Of a stretch of DNA of 64,000 nucleotides, positions 21,006-64,000 are shown piece after piece (position 1 is the stretch's first letter; each line of letters starts with the position of its first letter). The stretch lies in NCBI RefSeq assembly GCF_002854065.1, contig NZ_CP024147.1, one strand, 5' to 3'. Under the pieces are notes generated by a model, which had not been told where the DNA came from, ran no database searches, and saw nothing but the letters and a program-made list of their open reading frames with translations. The position numbers and the translations under genes are program-made. The DNA comes from Escherichia coli (GTDB taxonomy: Bacteria; Pseudomonadota; Gammaproteobacteria; Enterobacterales; Enterobacteriaceae).

Positions 21006-21165
21006 CCAGAAAAAAGAGGGTAGCAGCGTTAACTGCTACCCTCGAAGATTGTTACCCAGCGTATTGCGGTTTTCAGGCCCGATGGGGAACGACCATCAGG
21101 CGTATAGTCTGTCCGTGCTACGTAACAATTGAGAGGGCTGGAATTTCCGCCCCTGGTTCTTGTAA
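21006..21165 (-). ncRNA. sroC: Probable SroC sRNA (gltI 3'UTR / gltI-gltJ spacer fragment), ending in an intrinsic terminator
   Basis: 169-bp non-coding spacer between gltI stop and gltJ start, where E. coli SroC is described; contains hairpin gagggtagcag-cgttaa-ctgctaccctc (21016-21043) followed on the minus strand by TTTTTTCT. Confidence 0.45.
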
Positions 21166-22074
21166 TTAGTTCAGTGCCTTGTCATTCGGTTCTTTGAACA
21201 GTGCTTTCATTTCGTCTGACAGTTCGAAATTCATGTTCAGGTTTTTCGGCGGAATTGGATTTTTGAACCATTTATCAAACCATTTTTCCGCTTCACCGGA
21301 GGTCTGCACCTGAGCGATGGTGTCATCCATCAGCTTTTTGAACTGCGGATCGTCTTTACGCAACATGCAACCGTAGGCTTCCTGAGACTGCGGCTTGCCG
21401 ACGATATCCCAGTTGTCTGGTTTCTTCGCTTTCGCACGTTCACCGGCCAGCAGGGCATCATCCATCATAAAGGCAACGGCACGACCGCTTTCCAGGGTGC
21501 GGAAAGAGTCACCGTGATCTTTGGCGCTGATGATGCGCATATTCATTTTTTGCTCTTCATTCAGTTTGTTGAGCAAAACTTCAGAGGTAGTGCCGGAAGT
21601 GACGACTACGGCTTTGCCTTTCAGGTCGGCAAAATCTTTGATATCGCCGCCCTTTTTGGTCAACAGGCGCGTACCGACCACGAAAATAGTGTCAGAGAAA
21701 GCCGCCTGTTTTTGGCGTTCGACGTTGTTGGTGGTAGAACCACATTCAAAATCGAAAGTGCCGTTTTGCAGAAGAGGAATACGGTTTTGTGAGGTGATCG
21801 GAATCAGTTTCACCTGCAAGTCCGGTTTGTTGAGTTTCTTTTTCACTGCTTCAACAATGGCGTTGGAGTAATCCTGCGAATAACCCACCACTTTTTGCTG
21901 ATTGTCGTAATAAGAGAAAGGTACTGAAGATTCACGGTGACCGACGACAATCACGCCGTTTTTGGCGATTTTGTCCAGCGTACTGCCCGCTGCCGGGGCG
22001 GCGTCATCTGCCTGTGCCAGTCCTGCGGAAAGCGCAAGGGCCAGGATTGCTGTGGCAGGTTTACGTAATTGCAT
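21166..22074 (-). CDS. gltI: Glutamate/aspartate periplasmic binding protein
   Basis: Start set at MQLRKPATAILALALSAGLAQA (signal peptide; 302 aa); the ORF track extends 25 codons upstream. Confidence 0.9.
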   Translation of the reverse strand: MQLRKPATAILALALSAGLAQADDAAPAAGSTLDKIAKNGVIVVGHRESSVPFSYYDNQQKVVGYSQDYSNAIVEAVKKKLNKPDLQVKLIPITSQNRIPLLQNGTFDFECGSTTNNVERQKQAAFSDTIFVVGTRLLTKKGGDIKDFADLKGKAVVVTSGTTSEVLLNKLNEEQKMNMRIISAKDHGDSFRTLESGRAVAFMMDDALLAGERAKAKKPDNWDIVGKPQSQEAYGCMLRKDDPQFKKLMDDTIAQVQTSGEAEKWFDKWFKNPIPPKNLNMNFELSDEMKALFKEPNDKALN

Positions 22075-29557: not shown

Positions 29558-29632
29558 TGGCTGGGGTACGAGGATTCGAACCTCGGAATGCCGGAATCAG
29601 AATCCGGTGCCTTACCGCTTGGCGATACCCCA
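29558..29632 (-). tRNA. glnX: tRNA-Gln (anticodon CUG)
   Basis: 75-nt reverse-strand cloverleaf sequence, anticodon loop UUCUGAUU, ends CCA. Confidence 0.95.
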
Positions 29633-29669
29633 ACTGGGTGCACTTACAAGGTAAGCGTCTTGAATAAAT

Positions 29670-29744
29670 TGGCTGGGGTACGAGGATTCGAACCTCGGAA
29701 TGCCGGAATCAGAATCCGGTGCCTTACCGCTTGGCGATACCCCA
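29670..29744 (-). tRNA. glnV: tRNA-Gln (anticodon CUG)
   Basis: Exact repeat of the glnX sequence. Confidence 0.95.
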
Positions 29745-29791
29745 ACAAATTGGTTTTGAATTTGCCGAACATATTCGACACATTCAGAATT

Positions 29792-29868
29792 TGGTGGCTA
29801 CGACGGGATTCGAACCTGTGACCCCATCATTATGAGTGATGTGCTCTAACCAACTGAGCTACGTAGCC
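29792..29868 (-). tRNA. metU: tRNA-Met elongator (anticodon CAU)
   Basis: 77-nt sequence whose reverse complement reads GGCUACGUAGCUCAGUUGGUUAGAGCACAUCACUCAUAAUGAUGGGGUCACAGGUUCGAAUCCCGUCGUAGCCACCA. Confidence 0.95.
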
Positions 29869-29883
29869 AGATTGTTTCTTCGA

Positions 29884-29958
29884 TGGCTGGGGTACCTGGA
29901 TTCGAACCAGGGAATGCCGGTATCAAAAACCGGTGCCTTACCGCTTGGCGATACCCCA
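29884..29958 (-). tRNA. glnW: tRNA-Gln (anticodon UUG)
   Basis: 75-nt Gln tRNA with anticodon loop UUUUGAU; same acceptor stem as glnX/glnV. Confidence 0.95.
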
Positions 29959-29992
29959 ATAACCGGGCGGTGAACCGCTTACTCGAAGAAGA

Positions 29993-30067
29993 TGGCTGGG
30001 GTACCTGGATTCGAACCAGGGAATGCCGGTATCAAAAACCGGTGCCTTACCGCTTGGCGATACCCCA
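29993..30067 (-). tRNA. glnU: tRNA-Gln (anticodon UUG)
   Basis: Repeat of the glnW sequence. Confidence 0.95.
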
Positions 30068-30090
30068 TCCGTACAACGCTTTCTGGTGAA

Positions 30091-30175
30091 TGGTGCGGGA
30101 GGCGAGACTTGAACTCGCACACCTTGCGGCGCCAGAACCTAAATCTGGTGCGTCTACCAATTTCGCCACTCCCGC
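30091..30175 (-). tRNA. leuW: tRNA-Leu (anticodon UAG), class II tRNA with long variable arm
   Basis: 85-nt sequence; reverse complement starts GCGGGAGUGGCGAAAUUGG and ends ...CCCGCACCA. Confidence 0.93.
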
Positions 30176-30183
30176 AAAAAAGA

Positions 30184-30260
30184 TGGTGGCTACGACGGGA
30201 TTCGAACCTGTGACCCCATCATTATGAGTGATGTGCTCTAACCAACTGAGCTACGTAGCC
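30184..30260 (-). tRNA. metT: tRNA-Met elongator (anticodon CAU)
   Basis: Identical to the metU sequence; first gene of the operon. Confidence 0.95.
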
Positions 30261-60920: not shown

Positions 60921-60935
60921 TTGCCTGCGCGCTTA

Positions 60936-60963
60936 AGCCAGCCTCGTATCAGGGGGCTGGTTT
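60936..60963 (+). terminator. Intrinsic terminator after ybfA
   Basis: Hairpin agccagcc-tcgtatcag-ggggctgg followed by ttt. Confidence 0.5.
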
Positions 60964-61704
60964 ATGTGTTTTACATCAACGTCTTCCATGATAATTAACA
61001 TGGAAGACGTTTACATCGTGTTATTCATTTCATCACTGTTTTAGCATCAAGTTTCGATAGTATCCTTTTAAAGGGCGGCTCAGGATGCGGTCGCCTCCAT
61101 TGTTGCTCTAAGCAACTATGTCGTCAGAAATCTTCAGTTAGGTTGCATACTCCATTACACACTTTCCTGAAACCTCAGGGGAAGGTGAGAAAGCCCCTGT
61201 CACTTTTGCTCATTCCAGCATCTAAATAAATTCCGAATTTTGCTATTAACATCGCTACCGCAAGAAAAGCAGATAGTAAAGAGAGTAATATATACTTTAT
61301 TGATATATTAAGAATAATTAATTGTTAACATATCTAATGCAATAAGATGTGTTGTTGTTAATAAAAAGCTTATAGATTTATAGTTAATAATTAAAACGCA
61401 TCCGATATTTCAGCTTTTTCTATGCAAGATACAATTTTATAAGGTGTCCATTTTTATATGGAGGCGGTAGCGTGTCTGTTACTAGTGGTTTTATTTGCAT
61501 GGTGAATATATTGGGATTGTTAAATGCATAACGATGTATCCGTTCTGGTCGTTGTAAACATTGCTAATTGCTTAATATTATTAGTGATTATGGCTGGAAA
61601 GATAAAATGTGTGATAAACGGTGATGGATATCACCTTCATGACTAAAAAATAAATAAAAACCCATCAATAAATAATTCATTTATTAAAAAGGACTCATAC
61701 CAGT

Positions 61705-62157
61705 ATGACGGAGTATTATCTCAATGAAACTGTTGTAACTTTTCCCGGGAATATTATTCAGGACAGTACGATTAATATGCTGCGCCTCAGCGATCCCGAC
61801 GCTGCACTCATTATCAGTCGGGGCCAGATGCAGGAAGGAGACGAATTAGCCTCCCAGATTGAACAGCAAATGAAAAAACTGGAGAAACAGGTAAAGGATC
61901 TTCACTACACGCCAGTTCAGGTAACACGGGTAGGGATTAATGACGGTGAACAAGGGCTGGAAATACAGAGCCAGTTTCTCCGGGGTAACGAGCAGGTGTA
62001 CCAGTGTCAGGTGGCATTTGTATTGCCGGGTGAGCGGGTCATGATGGCCTTCACCTACGCCAGAACCACACCGCTGACCCCGGCAGATATGACGCGCTGG
62101 GCTGAAATTAAAAAGAATCTGCGCTTCAGGATGCGGCAGGAAGCCAGGACGAATTAA
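61705..62157 (+). CDS. Eag-family (DUF1795) chaperone of a type VI secretion prePAAR effector
   Basis: 150-aa ORF whose N-terminus (YYLNETVVTFPGNIIQDSTINMLRLSDPDAALIISRGQ) has the DUF1795 pattern; ends 18 bp before an Rhs ORF that begins with a prePAAR motif. Confidence 0.75.
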   Translation: MTEYYLNETVVTFPGNIIQDSTINMLRLSDPDAALIISRGQMQEGDELASQIEQQMKKLEKQVKDLHYTPVQVTRVGINDGEQGLEIQSQFLRGNEQVYQCQVAFVLPGERVMMAFTYARTTPLTPADMTRWAEIKKNLRFRMRQEARTN

Positions 62158-62175
62158 TCATACAGGGAACGGGAC

Positions 62176-64000
62176 ATGGAAGAGGCATTCTGGGCGGCAA
62201 GACAGGGTGATGCCCTGCTGCATACGTCGTTTATGGCAGATGTGCTGGGGGCGGTGCTGGAGGTGGCCGCAAATGTCGTTATTGATGCTCTCATTGTCGG
62301 CACAACCTCGTTACTGGCGGCGTCAGTGGGGTTCACGATGGGGTGCACGGCCGTCGTGCTGACCGGTTTTGTGGCGGGTGTGGCGATGGTGTACACCGGC
62401 GTGACAGAAAAGGTCAGCGAAGCCTGTTCAGCCCTCGCAGATATGCTTTTCCCGCCTCAGATTGAAGGTTACATCCTCACCGGCTCTGGTGACACATGGA
62501 TCAACAGCAAACCTGCCGCGCGGGCAGCGGCGACTGCGGCATCGCGGCAGGACATTGAGGCGCAGGAGGCGCAGTCGAAGGCGGAACAGGAAGAAGCGCA
62601 GCGTCAGGAGGATGCCAGAACGTTCCGGGATGTGGCCGGGGAATATCTGGAAATGGCGGGGGCCATAGCCCTGGCGGTTAACCCGGTGACAGGGCCTGTG
62701 CTGATGTCCCGGGCGCTGCACGACCAGCTCAGTACGGAAGAAGGGCGTTCTGAAATGGTGGATGGCGTGACACATTTTGTGTCGGAACTATGGCAGCCCA
62801 CTGTGGCCAGTGCGGCCCCGGGCTCCACCCCGACCCCTGACGATAAAATCGACTGCCATAAACATCCTTCCTCACTGACGCAGTTTCTCGCACAAAAAAA
62901 AGCTGCCTTTCTGGATGACCCCCTGGGAACGGCCCTTAACCTGCTGAGTCCGGACGGTATGCTGGAAACCGCCTTTCAGGGAGTGAATGCGGTTATTGGC
63001 AGCATCAGTAATCTGTTCAAAGGCGATGACGAGCCGCCCGCAGCGGAATATATCGCGGAAGGCGCGCGGGATGTGCGTATCAACAGCCAGCCGGCGGCAC
63101 GCAGCGGGGCACGCTGTACCTGCGAGGCCAGGGTGGTGAATGAGCCGGGGAACGGGGCGTTTGTGTCACCGGATGTGCGCATTGGCGGTCCGTTACTGGT
63201 GGTCAGGGATATCAGAAGCGGCAGGTCGCAGATAACCCTGGTGGCAACTGTGGCGCTGATGTTTCTTCGCCCGGGCAAAATGCTTTCTAAAATCGCCTGT
63301 TTTGCTGCCAGTGTCGGGATGAGCATGCTGGCGCAGAAGGCCACCAGAGCCCTTCCGCATCCGGTCAATGCCGCCACCGGGGCCAAATACCTTGCCGATG
63401 ACGATGACTTCGATTTCAGTCTGCCGGGCCACTTTCCGCTGGACTGGCAGCGCGTGTACAGCAGTCGTGACGAACGCACGGAAGGAATGTTTGGTCAGGG
63501 CTGGAGTGTGATGTATGAAGTCAGCCTGGTGCGCACACCGGGTAACGCGGACGAAAACTGCATGACCTTTGTGTCGGGCATGGGGCGACGCCTGGATATG
63601 GAAGCCGTGCTGCCGGGGAGCGGGTTTTACAGCCCCGGCGAAGGACTGGCAGTCCGGCGTGGTGAGCAGGGGCACTGGCTTATCAGCAGCGATGATGGAC
63701 AGTTTTTTCTGTTTGAAGCCGACCCGCACAACCCGCAGCGCCAGCGGCTGAAAATGCTGGGCGACCGTAACAGCAACTGTCTGAATCTGTACTACGACGA
63801 CCGGGGACGTATCACTGAAATCAGCGGCGAACAGCAGCGTCCGTGCATCCGTCTGTATTACGAACTGGCGGCGCATCCCCGGCGGATGACACAGATTTAT
63901 CAGCATTTCCCTGAGACTGCACCTTTACTGCTGCGTCGTTACAGCTATGACGAGGCCGGCCACCTGAACGGCGTGTACGACAGCACGGGGCACCTGCTGC
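62176..64000 (+). CDS. Rhs-family polymorphic toxin, N-terminal 608 codons (prePAAR, TMD, PAAR, start of YD repeats); continues past the window end
   Basis: Own translation from ATG 62176: MEEAFWAARQGDALLHTSF (prePAAR AARxxDxxxH), hydrophobic helices aa 21-75, PAAR motifs (TWINSKPAAR; VRINSQPAARSGARCTC), second hydrophobic segment aa 352-388, then YD-repeat sequence (NLYYDDRGRITEISG; YSYDEAGHLNGVYDSTGHLL). No stop before base 64000. Confidence 0.85.
   Translation, partial: MEEAFWAARQGDALLHTSFMADVLGAVLEVAANVVIDALIVGTTSLLAASVGFTMGCTAVVLTGFVAGVAMVYTGVTEKVSEACSALADMLFPPQIEGYILTGSGDTWINSKPAARAAATAASRQDIEAQEAQSKAEQEEAQRQEDARTFRDVAGEYLEMAGAIALAVNPVTGPVLMSRALHDQLSTEEGRSEMVDGVTHFVSELWQPTVASAAPGSTPTPDDKIDCHKHPSSLTQFLAQKKAAFLDDPLGTALNLLSPDGMLETAFQGVNAVIGSISNLFKGDDEPPAAEYIAEGARDVRINSQPAARSGARCTCEARVVNEPGNGAFVSPDVRIGGPLLVVRDIRSGRSQITLVATVALMFLRPGKMLSKIACFAASVGMSMLAQKATRALPHPVNAATGAKYLADDDDFDFSLPGHFPLDWQRVYSSRDERTEGMFGQGWSVMYEVSLVRTPGNADENCMTFVSGMGRRLDMEAVLPGSGFYSPGEGLAVRRGEQGHWLISSDDGQFFLFEADPHNPQRQRLKMLGDRNSNCLNLYYDDRGRITEISGEQQRPCIRLYYELAAHPRRMTQIYQHFPETAPLLLRRYSYDEAGHLNGVYDSTGHLL

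Follow-up and report, generated by a model that had tools for sequence, protein, structure and literature searches.

An auxiliary class I prePAAR Rhs effector module at the Escherichia coli ybfA-ybgA site, intact but probably not exportable

The pairing of an Eag chaperone with a prePAAR-containing Rhs effector is textbook, and a catalogue of it for Escherichia exists already (Ahmad et al. 2020, PMC7773334). In the closest relative, RhsA of Pseudomonas protegens, the N-terminal part has a seal peptide and an anchor helix and is cleaved at H304|P305, and the DUF6531 domain serves as a plug, or cork (PMC8765631). Class II prePAAR effectors differ by a second transmembrane domain (TMD) after PAAR (Ahmad et al. 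2020, PMC7773334). For the PAAR-Rhs protein of Salmonella bongori, the crystal does not show the toxin, whose RNase activity is a prediction (bioRxiv 10.1101/2024.02.26.582050). A PeerJ paper on a "chaperone-effector-immunity" arrangement in strain UMN026 was also considered as a match and set aside, as it concerns DUF4123, a different system.

Here, we describe a further example of this pairing at the 3′ end of a 64,000-nt stretch of E. coli DNA (the window), which interrupts the Rhs gene. [quoted passage not shown] An earlier note, made from the window sequence, had proposed a T6SS effector locus, and this was borne out by the Eag-type (DUF1795) protein, the prePAAR/TMD/PAAR Rhs protein, and the downstream tip. 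We read eag-rhs-immunity as an auxiliary class I prePAAR T6SS effector module that is intact but most likely not exportable in the matching strain, with a probability of roughly 0.85. The module leaves the current understanding of T6SS effectors unchanged; annotation gains names for its three products, which are an Eag chaperone, an Rhs effector of prePAAR class I tipped with a BECR-fold RNase, and an immunity protein. Features within the window are collected in Table 1.

Architecture of the chaperone and effector genes

The first gene is the DUF1795 gene of the earlier note, whose coordinates and 18-bp gap to the Rhs open reading frame (ORF) agreed with ours: eag ends in a TAA at positions 62155-62157, and the next ATG is at 62176. 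Pfam DcrB (PF08786, equivalent to DUF1795) matches residues 18-137 of the 150-amino-acid (aa) product (E = 3.9e-19). Its best solved relatives are the SciW structures 9mvg, 6xrr, and 6xrb (E = 6.6e-4 to 7.7e-4, residues 19-124), with EagT6 at E = 0.28. RefSeq labels the product "DcrB-related protein," and NCBIfam holds no family for the Eag, toxin, or immunity protein. The order eag-then-rhs recurs at the ansP locus (see below) and in Salmonella. The Eag-type protein is predicted to be the chaperone for the N-terminal transmembrane helices of the effector.

The Rhs frame is uninterrupted from 62176 to 63999 (608 codons), and the full-length protein in CUWW06 has 1,544 aa, ending in PLGWIDPLGL and a 105-aa toxin. 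RefSeq labels it "RHS repeat-associated core domain-containing protein." As the earlier note had it, the protein starts with the prePAAR motif AARQGDALLH, followed by hydrophobic helices and PAAR motifs; regular-expression, hydropathy, and Pfam searches all agreed. The E values of the profile matches to the two proteins are strong and speak against chance features. This motif is the sole match to AARxxDxxxH in the protein; its residues A7, A8, D12, and H16 are ≥90% conserved among 40 homologues, and the motif is also present in distant homologues. Pfam prePAAR_I (PF25799), which was built on Rhs1, reached only E = 1.2 (9.9 bits, residues 5-59). On sequence grounds, the effector belongs to the RhsA-like rather than the Rhs1-like branch. 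Kyte-Doolittle means of 1.9 to 2.2 mark residues ∼17-78 as the sole strongly hydrophobic stretch in the 1,544 aa, and an AlphaFold2 (AF2) model places helices at residues 19-50, 57-74, and 76-91. At a mean of >1.4, only one further window appears, a marginal one at residue 169.

Table 1. Features of the chaperone-effector locus within the 64,000-nt window
Feature	Coordinates	Strand	Basis
AT-rich spacer (35% GC), ybfA terminator to module	60921..61619	.	No ORF >40 aa
vgrG scar, homologous to last 37 nt of vgrG plus vgrG-eag spacer (ansP module)	61620..61704	+	Local blastn
eag, 150-aa DcrB/DUF1795-family protein	61705..62157	+	Pfam, PDB matches, RefSeq name
rhs 5′ part, codons 1-608 of 1544; gene passes window end	62176..64000	+	ORF; full ORF L001:21177-25811
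prePAAR motif AARQGDALLH, residues 7-16	62194..62223	+	Regex match
Single transmembrane/hydrophobic region, residues 17-91	62224..62448	+	Kyte-Doolittle, AF2 helices
PAAR segment 1, residues 95-120; first PAAR tetrapeptide at 113	62458..62535	+	Weak Pfam, AF2 beta-strands, RhsA alignment
Helical insertion 1 within PAAR, residues 121-208; four predicted helices	62536..62799	+	RhsA alignment, AF2
PAAR segment 2, residues 209-233; conserved D223, C227, H230	62800..62874	+	Homologue conservation, AF2
Helical insertion 2 within PAAR, residues 234-288; three predicted helices	62875..63039	+	AF2; no alignment to RhsA
PAAR segment 3, residues 289-343; second PAAR tetrapeptide at 306	63040..63204	+	Pfam PAAR_motif
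Segment aligned to RhsA seal peptide/anchor helix region, residues 344-395	63205..63360	+	RhsA alignment
Plug ("cork") domain DUF6531, residues 396-473	63361..63594	+	Pfam E = 2e-18 (match 395-473)
First YD/Rhs repeats of cocoon, interrupted by window end	63595..64000	+	Profile and PDB matches

In the PAAR domain, Pfam PAAR_motif matches residues 291-321 (E = 2.6e-5) and, weakly, residues 97-118, while the NCBIfam model T6SS_PAAR_dom scores segment 3 at 7.6e-5, under its curated cutoff. A Foldseek search of the PDB with a model of the N-terminal 400 aa returned PAAR proteins at a nonsignificant E of about 3. We considered and dropped the view that PAAR is split here by one unprecedented 170-aa insertion: RhsA already has a linker of ∼95 aa that carries the same block, and the Rhs described here only enlarges it. 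The two helical insertions are a minor peculiarity of the module. Only three clusters at 50% identity match the whole N terminus in one stretch, and both insertions are present at full length only in the Escherichia/Salmonella branch of RhsA-like effectors. Within insertion 1, a helix of marginal hydrophobicity spans about residues 158-178. A bolder proposal makes the insertions an extra device at the spike tip, perhaps a second element, active on membranes or in contact with a receptor, that helps target entry, and, separately, has the intact module kept in a T6SS-less strain for a selected, secretion-independent role; we consider this proposal unlikely.

Behind PAAR, an N-terminal autocleavage site is predicted at H395|P396. 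The core that follows gives 13 RHS_repeat matches (E ≤ 1e-3) and one to RHS (PF03527) in Pfam, and its best solved relative is RhsA (7q97; 1,055 bits, residues 287-1440). PLGWIDPLGL occupies residues 1428-1437 and fits the core-end pattern PxxxxDPxGL. With a prePAAR motif, a single TMD region before PAAR, a PAAR domain, and >1,000 aa with YD repeats, the predicted architecture is that of a class I prePAAR effector. A class II or hybrid architecture was rejected: the stretch at residues 350-391 lies under transmembrane hydropathy and aligns to the seal/anchor helix region of RhsA.

Toxin tip, immunity gene, and chromosomal site

The earlier note had placed the toxin and immunity gene beyond base 64000 and had suggested extending the sequence downstream; in CUWW06, that extension yielded PLGWIDPLGL, the 105-aa toxin, and a 97-aa putative immunity ORF. 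The toxin tip shares about 90% identity with that of S. bongori A464_2174 (8qjc; E = 2e-62). Its AF2 model (pLDDT 95.4) has a BECR/RNase A-like fold; among 31 sequences, H10, H14, and H92 are ≥90% conserved, and K13, R83, E85, and H94 are invariant. In MafB2, the catalytic histidines are His335, His402, and His409. The tip matched no Pfam family at E ≤ 10, Ntox50 (PF15542) included, and thus forms a separate sequence family that shares the BECR fold. The toxin models as a BECR-fold RNase, and its activity would be ribonucleolytic. The immunity ORF lies directly 3′ of rhs in CUWW06, overlapping it by 4 nt (RefSeq label, "hypothetical protein"). A SymE-family gene is present at the 3′ end of these Rhs elements. 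Toxin-immunity pairing is conserved: an immunity homologue (38 to 57% identity) lies 3′ of the toxin homologue in Lonsdalea, Avibacterium, and Clostridium. GC content falls from 62% in the core to 40% in the toxin and 32% in the immunity gene. The toxin family spans Proteobacteria and Firmicutes and has no Pfam model, and the homologue in 8QJC was solved but is invisible. The family is an easy target for biochemical characterization.

The module lies between ybfA and ybgA, a site filled in K-12 by rhsC, which is unrelated and has no Eag gene; the case shows turnover at E. coli Rhs slots, with the rhsC site holding a different Rhs clade. The spacer after the ybfA terminator is not similar to the one that separates ybfA from rhsC in K-12. 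The module promoter probably lies in this spacer; promoter-like matches within it are no more frequent than in shuffled sequence. Apart from a terminator-like hairpin at ybfA, promoter and terminator scans at the locus gave nothing above chance, and Rfam gave no match in or near it.

Between spacer and eag lies a vgrG scar. Local blastn aligned this region to an ansP-locus module (L013:11918-12016) with 86% identity over 101 bp, and the scar is also where the long alignment between the two modules (97.4%) starts. At the ansP locus of strain QA-1986 83, the order is vgrG-eag-rhs-imm, with eag and the rhs core 97.4% identical to those of the window module; identity to the paralogue ends about 27 codons before the end of PLGWIDPLGL, and the two tips are unrelated. 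Judged by these alignments, the window module is a vgrG-less copy of the ansP (rhsE-site) vgrG-eag-rhs module and had a vgrG-linked ancestor. A Salmonella homologue lies within SPI-6, directly after vgrG.

The T6SS in the matching genome and the fate of the module

Across 5,426 genomes, eag-rhs was found in 218 and the SPI-6-like tssA-tagJ block in 170, and a combined eag-rhsNT plus SPI-6-like tssC query found 219 genomes in total. These totals alone were used to assess co-occurrence, a per-genome count being ambiguous since eag-rhs is present twice in many genomes. The distribution of eag-rhs is nearly nested with that of the SPI-6-like T6SS at aspV.

This distribution bears on the reading that the locus has nothing to do with T6SS: the DcrB-like product would belong to the envelope and be unrelated, and the Rhs protein would either be exported otherwise or be a nonsecreted relic like K-12 Rhs. 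The Pfam name DcrB does stem from a periplasmic lipoprotein, vgrG is absent from the locus, and K-12 retains its Rhs elements although it has no T6SS. Such a reading fits poorly, however, with the prePAAR, TMD, and PAAR architecture, close homology to the T6SS-exported RhsA, a 97%-identical copy directly after vgrG, a Salmonella homologue inside SPI-6, and the near nesting with the SPI-6-like T6SS. We consider it already close to refuted and give it hardly any weight.

The T6SS loci found in CUWW06 are remnants. The survey covered five types of E. coli T6SS through their marker genes (megablast) and four loci by inspection; the marker queries were composites of a 100%-identical kdp anchor and T6SS marker genes. 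The aspV cluster is cut by an IS3 element, leaving just tssA, tssG, tssF, tssE, and a tagJ pseudogene, while close relatives still have an intact system; PapRG-06-5 and QA-1986 83, for example, carry the SPI-6-like cluster in intact form together with both eag-rhs copies. At ansP, vgrG breaks off at nt 1448 of 1998 and has lost its C-terminal third, where PAAR docks. The pheV T6SS is a four-gene remnant (frameshifted tssB, tssC, tssK, and a truncated tssL), and the metV site is empty. Apart from the pheV remnant, megablast found no Sci-1, metV-type, EHEC-type, or Sci-2 marker genes in CUWW06; the marker queries likewise found no Sci-1-type hcp, tssM, tssF, or vgrG and no metV-type hcp or tssM. 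In the marker searches and the four loci, the core set (tssA-M, hcp, vgrG, and clpV) is incomplete. IS1 and ISAs1 copies lie near the second T6SS and spike gene losses.

The composite queries left one extra tssC-like place, which is accounted for by the pheV tssC remnant, found via colinearity with K-12. Local blastn of the four CUWW06 loci and the window had been negative for it, and CUWW06 is absent among the best 60 matches listed for a tssC 3′ query. Strain EC02 has a truncated tssC, whose context gave no lead on this place.

Because the SPI-6-like cluster, the ansP vgrG, and the pheV T6SS are all truncated, the effector module is probably unfireable in CUWW06. The module could still be an active weapon if a different VgrG carried it and it were launched by a T6SS outside the reach of our survey, which relied on nucleotide-level markers and four loci; a very divergent T6SS or an orphan compatible vgrG could have escaped it, and all three ORFs are intact. 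Yet the matching genome has only remnants at three separate T6SS-related loci, Sci-1-type and metV-type markers are absent, and the extra place is the pheV tssC remnant. In addition, the C-terminal third is missing from the sole vgrG of the type that adjoins this eag-rhs family, and PAAR-VgrG pairing is generally specific (PMC7773334). We regard continued use as improbable.

The intact ORFs could also be explained if the module were kept for a role independent of secretion, either as a toxin-antitoxin-like addiction or regulatory pair or mainly for immunity against relatives with the same toxin. A precedent is reported for Salmonella Rhs elements (PMC7043789), and the Rhs family occurs in about 4% of E. 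coli genomes, making exposure plausible. Neither version, however, needs eag or the 4.6-kb rhs gene, and recent IS-mediated loss of the launcher explains the intactness equally well, since close relatives keep an intact system; we think such a role distinctly improbable. That the three long ORFs (150, 1,544, and 97 aa) are all uninterrupted would be unexpected for a module long useless.

The earlier note had held that a genome lacking a T6SS apparatus, together with an Rhs lacking a toxin tip, would argue for an inactive relic. Only the first part describes CUWW06, which has no intact T6SS; its Rhs keeps a complete tip and an immunity gene. The module thus looks like a weapon that was stranded recently, and its immunity gene may retain some use. 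It shows how effector cassettes can outlive their launcher: a wastewater strain retains an intact 4.6-kb toxin gene after T6SS and spike losses.

Where a launcher is intact, the module would be expected to work by homology with the P. protegens EagR1-RhsA-VgrG1 system. Eag would shield the N-terminal transmembrane helices of the effector in the cytoplasm of the producer, the prePAAR motif would complete the PAAR cone that caps the VgrG spike, and the YD-repeat cocoon would enclose the C-terminal toxin. The toxin would be freed by a cut behind PLGWIDPLGL, and the N-terminal 395 residues would be cut off at H395|P396. Firing of the SPI-6-like T6SS would then carry a BECR-fold ribonuclease into a neighboring cell, with the 97-aa downstream protein presumably protecting sibling cells.

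Comparison with known systems

P. protegens EagR1-RhsA-VgrG1 (7Q97; PMC7773334, PMC8765631) is closest to the module. Both have eag directly upstream, prePAAR, one TMD region, and a PAAR domain split by a linker with the block W-x-PTVAS-x-APGS...C-x-KHP; both continue with the seal/anchor-aligned region, an HP cleavage motif, the DUF6531 cork, a YD cocoon, and a C-terminal aspartyl-protease motif. They differ in the N-terminal fragment (395 residues here versus 304 in RhsA), in the longer insertion 1, in insertion 2 (residues 234-288), which has no RhsA counterpart in the alignment, in the toxin tip, and in the lack of an adjacent vgrG at the window locus.

Salmonella Typhimurium SciW-Rhs1 (SPI-6; 6XRR/6XRB) and the main-cluster copy of PapRG-06-5 share with the module the Eag family, class I logic, and the T6SS family, SPI-6-like at aspV with Tae4/Tai4. 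The distance between PAAR motifs, however, is 34 aa in the compact Rhs1 type versus 193 here, the Rhs cores are 33% identical, and the two Eag proteins of one genome (module and main-cluster type) show no similarity by blastp. S. bongori N268-08 A464_2174/A464_2173, a PAAR-Rhs protein with its antitoxin (8QJB-D; bioRxiv 10.1101/2024.02.26.582050), has a tip very similar to ours, and our immunity protein starts MNIDF and ends AINKL, matching primers in that paper. Its Rhs has 1,530 aa versus 1,544 here, and the cores align strongly only in the C-terminal half.

K-12 RhsC (b0700) occupies the same ybfA-ybgA slot and likewise has a GC-rich core, an AT-rich tip, and a small downstream ORF. The earlier note had stated, correctly, that K-12 Rhs proteins have no Eag gene and are of another subtype: RhsC has a plain N-terminal PAAR (MSGKPAARQGDMTQYGG) without the prePAAR histidine, TMD, or upstream Eag, and its core is about 31% identical to that of the window Rhs. 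K-12 also has orphan tips and H-repeat/ISAs1 elements, which the window locus lacks. Finally, MafB2-CT of Neisseria meningitidis (8HHJ) and YxiD-CT of Bacillus subtilis (9V8I; Ntox50) are 16% identical in sequence to the toxin; those toxins are delivered by Maf or LXG/T7SS, whereas the toxin of this module would travel by Rhs and T6SS.

Predicted Eag chaperone and RhsA-like N-terminus

The 150-aa product of the ORF preceding rhs matches DcrB in Pfam (PF08786; E=3.9e-19, residues 18-137), the family that the earlier note called DUF1795; among solved structures, meaningful similarity is confined to the Salmonella Eag chaperone SciW (9mvg, 6xrr, and 6xrb; E about 7e-4), with a weak match to EagT6. 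In the raw sequence, the rhs ATG lies at 62176, 18 bp past the end of eag, and the frame stays open for 608 codons, to the window end. E. coli CUWW06 (NZ_CP182139.1), a Thai wastewater isolate, matches the final 3 kb at 100% identity and differs at 3 of 23,001 overlapping bases overall. In CUWW06, rhs is followed by a 97-aa ORF (4-nt overlap with rhs), a SymE-family gene on the opposite strand, and ybgA; the locus is therefore the ybfA-ybgA slot. K-12 has rhsC, ybfB, and orphan tips there; its RhsC begins with MSGKPAARQGDMTQYGG, lacks an accompanying eag gene, and shares about 31% identity with the window Rhs in the core. By its sequence, we assign the window Rhs to a clade other than that of K-12 RhsC, occupying the same slot.

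In Pfam, the Rhs protein has 13 RHS_repeat matches and the RHS core (PF03527); its sequence contains DPIGL at 1411 and, at 1428-1437, PLGWIDPLGL, beyond which a tip of about 105 aa remains. GC content is 62% in the core, 40% in the toxin, and 32% in the immunity ORF, a pattern typical of Rhs elements. At the other end, AARQGDALLH occupies residues 7-16, and residues about 17-78 form the sole strongly hydrophobic region of the whole protein. In the Rhs fragment, Pfam matched PAAR_motif at 291-321 (E=2.6e-5) and, weakly, a first piece of PAAR at 97-118; DUF6531 covers 395-473. The best solved relative is Pseudomonas protegens RhsA (7q97; 1055 bits), the reference class I prePAAR effector, to which the N-terminus aligns in three pieces: the initial PAAR segment together with the linker; the block W-x-PTVAS-x-APGS...C-x-KHP; and the second PAAR half through HPV-x-AATGAK. 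A seal peptide and an anchor helix lie between PAAR and the cork domain of RhsA, which cleaves itself between H304 and P305 (PMC8765631); the predicted equivalent here is between H395 and P396. A second transmembrane region at 350-391, which would make the protein class II, was rejected because its hydropathy is below transmembrane level and the region corresponds to the RhsA seal and anchor. The Pfam prePAAR_I model, built on Rhs1, gave only E=1.2, which fits an RhsA-like rather than an Rhs1-like branch.

These results agree with the earlier note, which had read the locus as an Eag-paired T6SS Rhs effector. ORF coordinates and the DcrB match, obtained with the profile search that it had proposed, confirm a DUF1795 gene 18 bp before the Rhs ORF; motif position, hydropathy, and Pfam make its description of prePAAR, hydrophobic helices, and PAAR motifs accurate; and its account of the K-12 RhsC start and missing Eag gene holds for K-12, the Rhs subtype indeed differing. 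The CUWW06 extension supplied the DPxGL-type motif, toxin domain, and immunity gene expected past base 64000, which, with the motifs, Pfam matches, and RhsA homology, upholds the overall reading.

The two PAAR tetrapeptides are separated by 193 residues, compared with 94-100 in RhsA-like homologues (Caballeronia and other taxa) and 34 in the main-cluster effector, which is Rhs1-like. The AF2 model computed for residues 1-400 (40 sequences; pLDDT 79) contains prePAAR strands, three helices in the transmembrane region, PAAR strands at 95-120, 209-227, and 291-342, and two helical insertions between these strands (four helices at 124-206, three at 234-282). PAAR proteins ranked top, without significance, in a Foldseek search with this model. 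Among 1.84 billion cluster representatives, only three clusters matched all 400 residues in one stretch; a word-index search brought up homologues from E. coli, E. marmotae, Salmonella (59% identity), and, as fragments, Shigella. The model thus suggests a PAAR domain that is enlarged and twice interrupted, a minor peculiarity worth recording.

Toxin tip and predicted immunity protein

Neither Pfam nor NCBIfam has a family for the toxin tip, which is a sequence family of its own with 61 homologues in Enterobacterales, Pseudomonas, Avibacterium, Clostridium, and Lacrimispora. The tip of Salmonella bongori A464_2174 (8qjc) is about 90% identical (E=2e-62); the toxin lacked density in that structure, and its authors predicted an RNase fold like that of CdiA-CT from Y. 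kristensenii (bioRxiv 10.1101/2024.02.26.582050). We repeated the fold test independently of their prediction. By structure prediction (AF2 model; pLDDT 95.4), the tip is a BECR-fold protein and a putative RNase. In a 31-sequence alignment, K13, N58, W62, G76, R83, E85, I91, G93, H94, and P95 are invariant and H10, H14, and H92 nearly so; MafB2-CT is a demonstrated RNase that requires three histidines, and YxiD-CT is a tRNase (Pfam Ntox50) with an HxVP motif.

The 97-aa ORF likewise could not be assigned to a family in Pfam or NCBIfam. In Lonsdalea, Avibacterium, and Clostridium sporogenes, a homologue of it (38-57% identity, 24 invariant columns) is found directly 3' of the toxin homologue, and because of this conserved pairing across genera we call it the predicted immunity gene. 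The primer ends for the S. bongori antitoxin match the termini of the 97-aa protein. This predicted BECR RNase toxin-immunity family without a Pfam entry, common to the window module and S. bongori, is worth recording. On the C. sporogenes contig, small toxin/immunity cassettes stand in a row: Ntox50, the toxin family of this Rhs tip together with its immunity gene, Imm11, and EndoU_bacteria. This putative RNase tip is therefore also in circulation among polymorphic-toxin arrays of Firmicutes.

All Rhs elements examined end with a SymE-family (type I toxin-like) gene on the opposite strand: those at ybfA, aspV, and ansP in three E. coli strains, as well as an Rhs tip of Lonsdalea quercina with the same toxin family. 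We are not aware of a published connection between SymE-like genes and the ends of Rhs elements.

Origin of the module and its proposed cognate secretion system

The window's locus lacks vgrG. A further copy of eag and the rhs N-terminus, 99% identical, is present in many genomes; in QA-1986 83 it lies between ansP and pptA, the K-12 rhsE slot, in the order two small ORFs, vgrG (666 aa), eag, rhs (1558 aa), imm, and symE (minus strand). The ybfA and ansP modules are 97.4% identical from 85 bp before eag to just short of the demarcation motif, and their tips are unrelated. Those 85 bp are a recombination scar, which shows that a vgrG-linked module gave rise to the ybfA copy; at ybfA-ybgA, a copy of the ansP module without vgrG has taken the place of rhsC. 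In the spacer preceding the scar, no ORF exceeds 40 aa, and nothing resembles the 243-bp ybfA-rhsC spacer of K-12 or any of the fetched loci. Elsewhere in the window, sroC and a seven-tRNA cluster are ordinary E. coli features.

Coordinates of features in the window, in CUWW06 (L001, L002, L014, L015, L023), in the QA-1986 83 ansP locus (L013), and in other fetched stretches
Feature	Position	Strand	Remarks
sroC sRNA	window 21008-21170		
Seven-tRNA cluster	window 29561-30260	-	
700-bp spacer	window 60921-61619		35% GC; 3' of ybfA terminator-like hairpin (60934-60964)
vgrG scar	window 61620-61704		85 bp before eag; homologous to last 37 nt of ansP vgrG plus vgrG-eag spacer, 86% identity
eag ORF, 150 aa	window 61705-62157	+	ORF list, raw sequence; stop TAA at 62155-62157
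Full rhs ORF, 1544 aa	L001:21177-25811	+	CUWW06
SymE-family gene	L001:26145-26474	-	beyond window
Further SymE-family genes	L002:40327-40560, L013:17545-17787, L015:20826-21035, L004:14623-14778, L020:895-1050		
aspV SPI-6-like cluster	L002:32261-41500		tssA, tssG, tssF, tssE, tagJ pseudogene, then IS3, Rhs scrap, symE
ansP vgrG	L015:16865-22485		coordinates of the locus; vgrG ends at nt 1448 of 1998, joined to 153-bp rhs scrap, symE fragment, ISAs1
pheV remnant	L023:13706-26071		frameshifted tssB, tssC, tssK, truncated tssL; adjoins Wadjet JetD fragment and two IS1 copies
Phage-like blocks	L014:38329-50000		CUWW06 2.378-2.390 Mb

A Salmonella serovar Ohio contig has the 59%-identical homologue inside SPI-6, in the order tssM, tagF, glucosaminidase effector with its immunity gene, vgrG, DcrB, and rhs. 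The long-PAAR eag-rhs is thus a main-cluster effector, directly 3' of vgrG, in some serovars, whereas S. Typhimurium has the compact Rhs1 type at that position; the two N-terminal types therefore appear interchangeable there. Among 5426 complete E. coli genomes, eag-rhs is present in 218 and a SPI-6-like tssA-tagJ block at aspV in 170, and a combined query (eag-rhsNT plus SPI-6-like tssC) found only 219 in all; carriers of this T6SS are therefore almost nested within eag-rhs carriers, against a background of 3-4%. The intact aspV cluster of PapRG-06-5 includes Tae4/Tai4, TagJ/TagK, orphan tips, and its own vgrG-eag-rhs (1374 aa, compact PAAR). We infer that the window module is an auxiliary effector of the SPI-6-like system, loaded on the ansP-type VgrG.

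T6SS remnants in CUWW06 and comparison with known effectors

The earlier note had also proposed a check for T6SS core genes. Read in CUWW06, T6SS-related genes are present at aspV, ansP, and pheV, but all three loci are remnants; the toxin tip is kept. We surveyed markers with composite queries (kdp anchor plus T6SS marker genes), counting extra matching places per CUWW06 record. Such queries found none of the EHEC-type, Sci-2-type, or SPI-6-like tssC genes in CUWW06, nor Sci-1 hcp, vgrG, tssM, or tssF. The metV-type query (tssC, hcp, vgrG, and tssM) gave one extra place, the same as for Sci-1 tssC; this tssC-like place is at pheV, and the metV site is empty. In this marker survey and at the inspected loci, no hcp, tssM, or clpV was detectable in CUWW06, nor any intact vgrG of the surveyed types. 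Three T6SS-related loci have decayed independently in one 4.65-Mb genome. The same genome has, near the ydeQ/ydeR fimbrial genes, two tandem copies of a filamentous-phage-like block; both encode a Zot-family protein and a GspD-like secretin, and a replication protein II/X gene is annotated in the copy that was fetched in full.

In CUWW06, the ORFs for effector, chaperone, and immunity protein are all intact; the effector is likely stranded in a strain that lost its launcher. Strain 100416, a close relative with 99.9% identity at the locus, has a complete Sci-1-type system, which is unlikely to fire this effector without a matching VgrG.

Class I prePAAR effectors have one transmembrane region, Rhs repeats, and a length of >1000 aa, and Escherichia genomes have already been screened for prePAAR effectors (PMC7773334). 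We classify the module as a class I prePAAR Rhs effector that has an Eag chaperone and an RNase-type tip; it is a new, uncharacterised member of a kind already catalogued for Escherichia.
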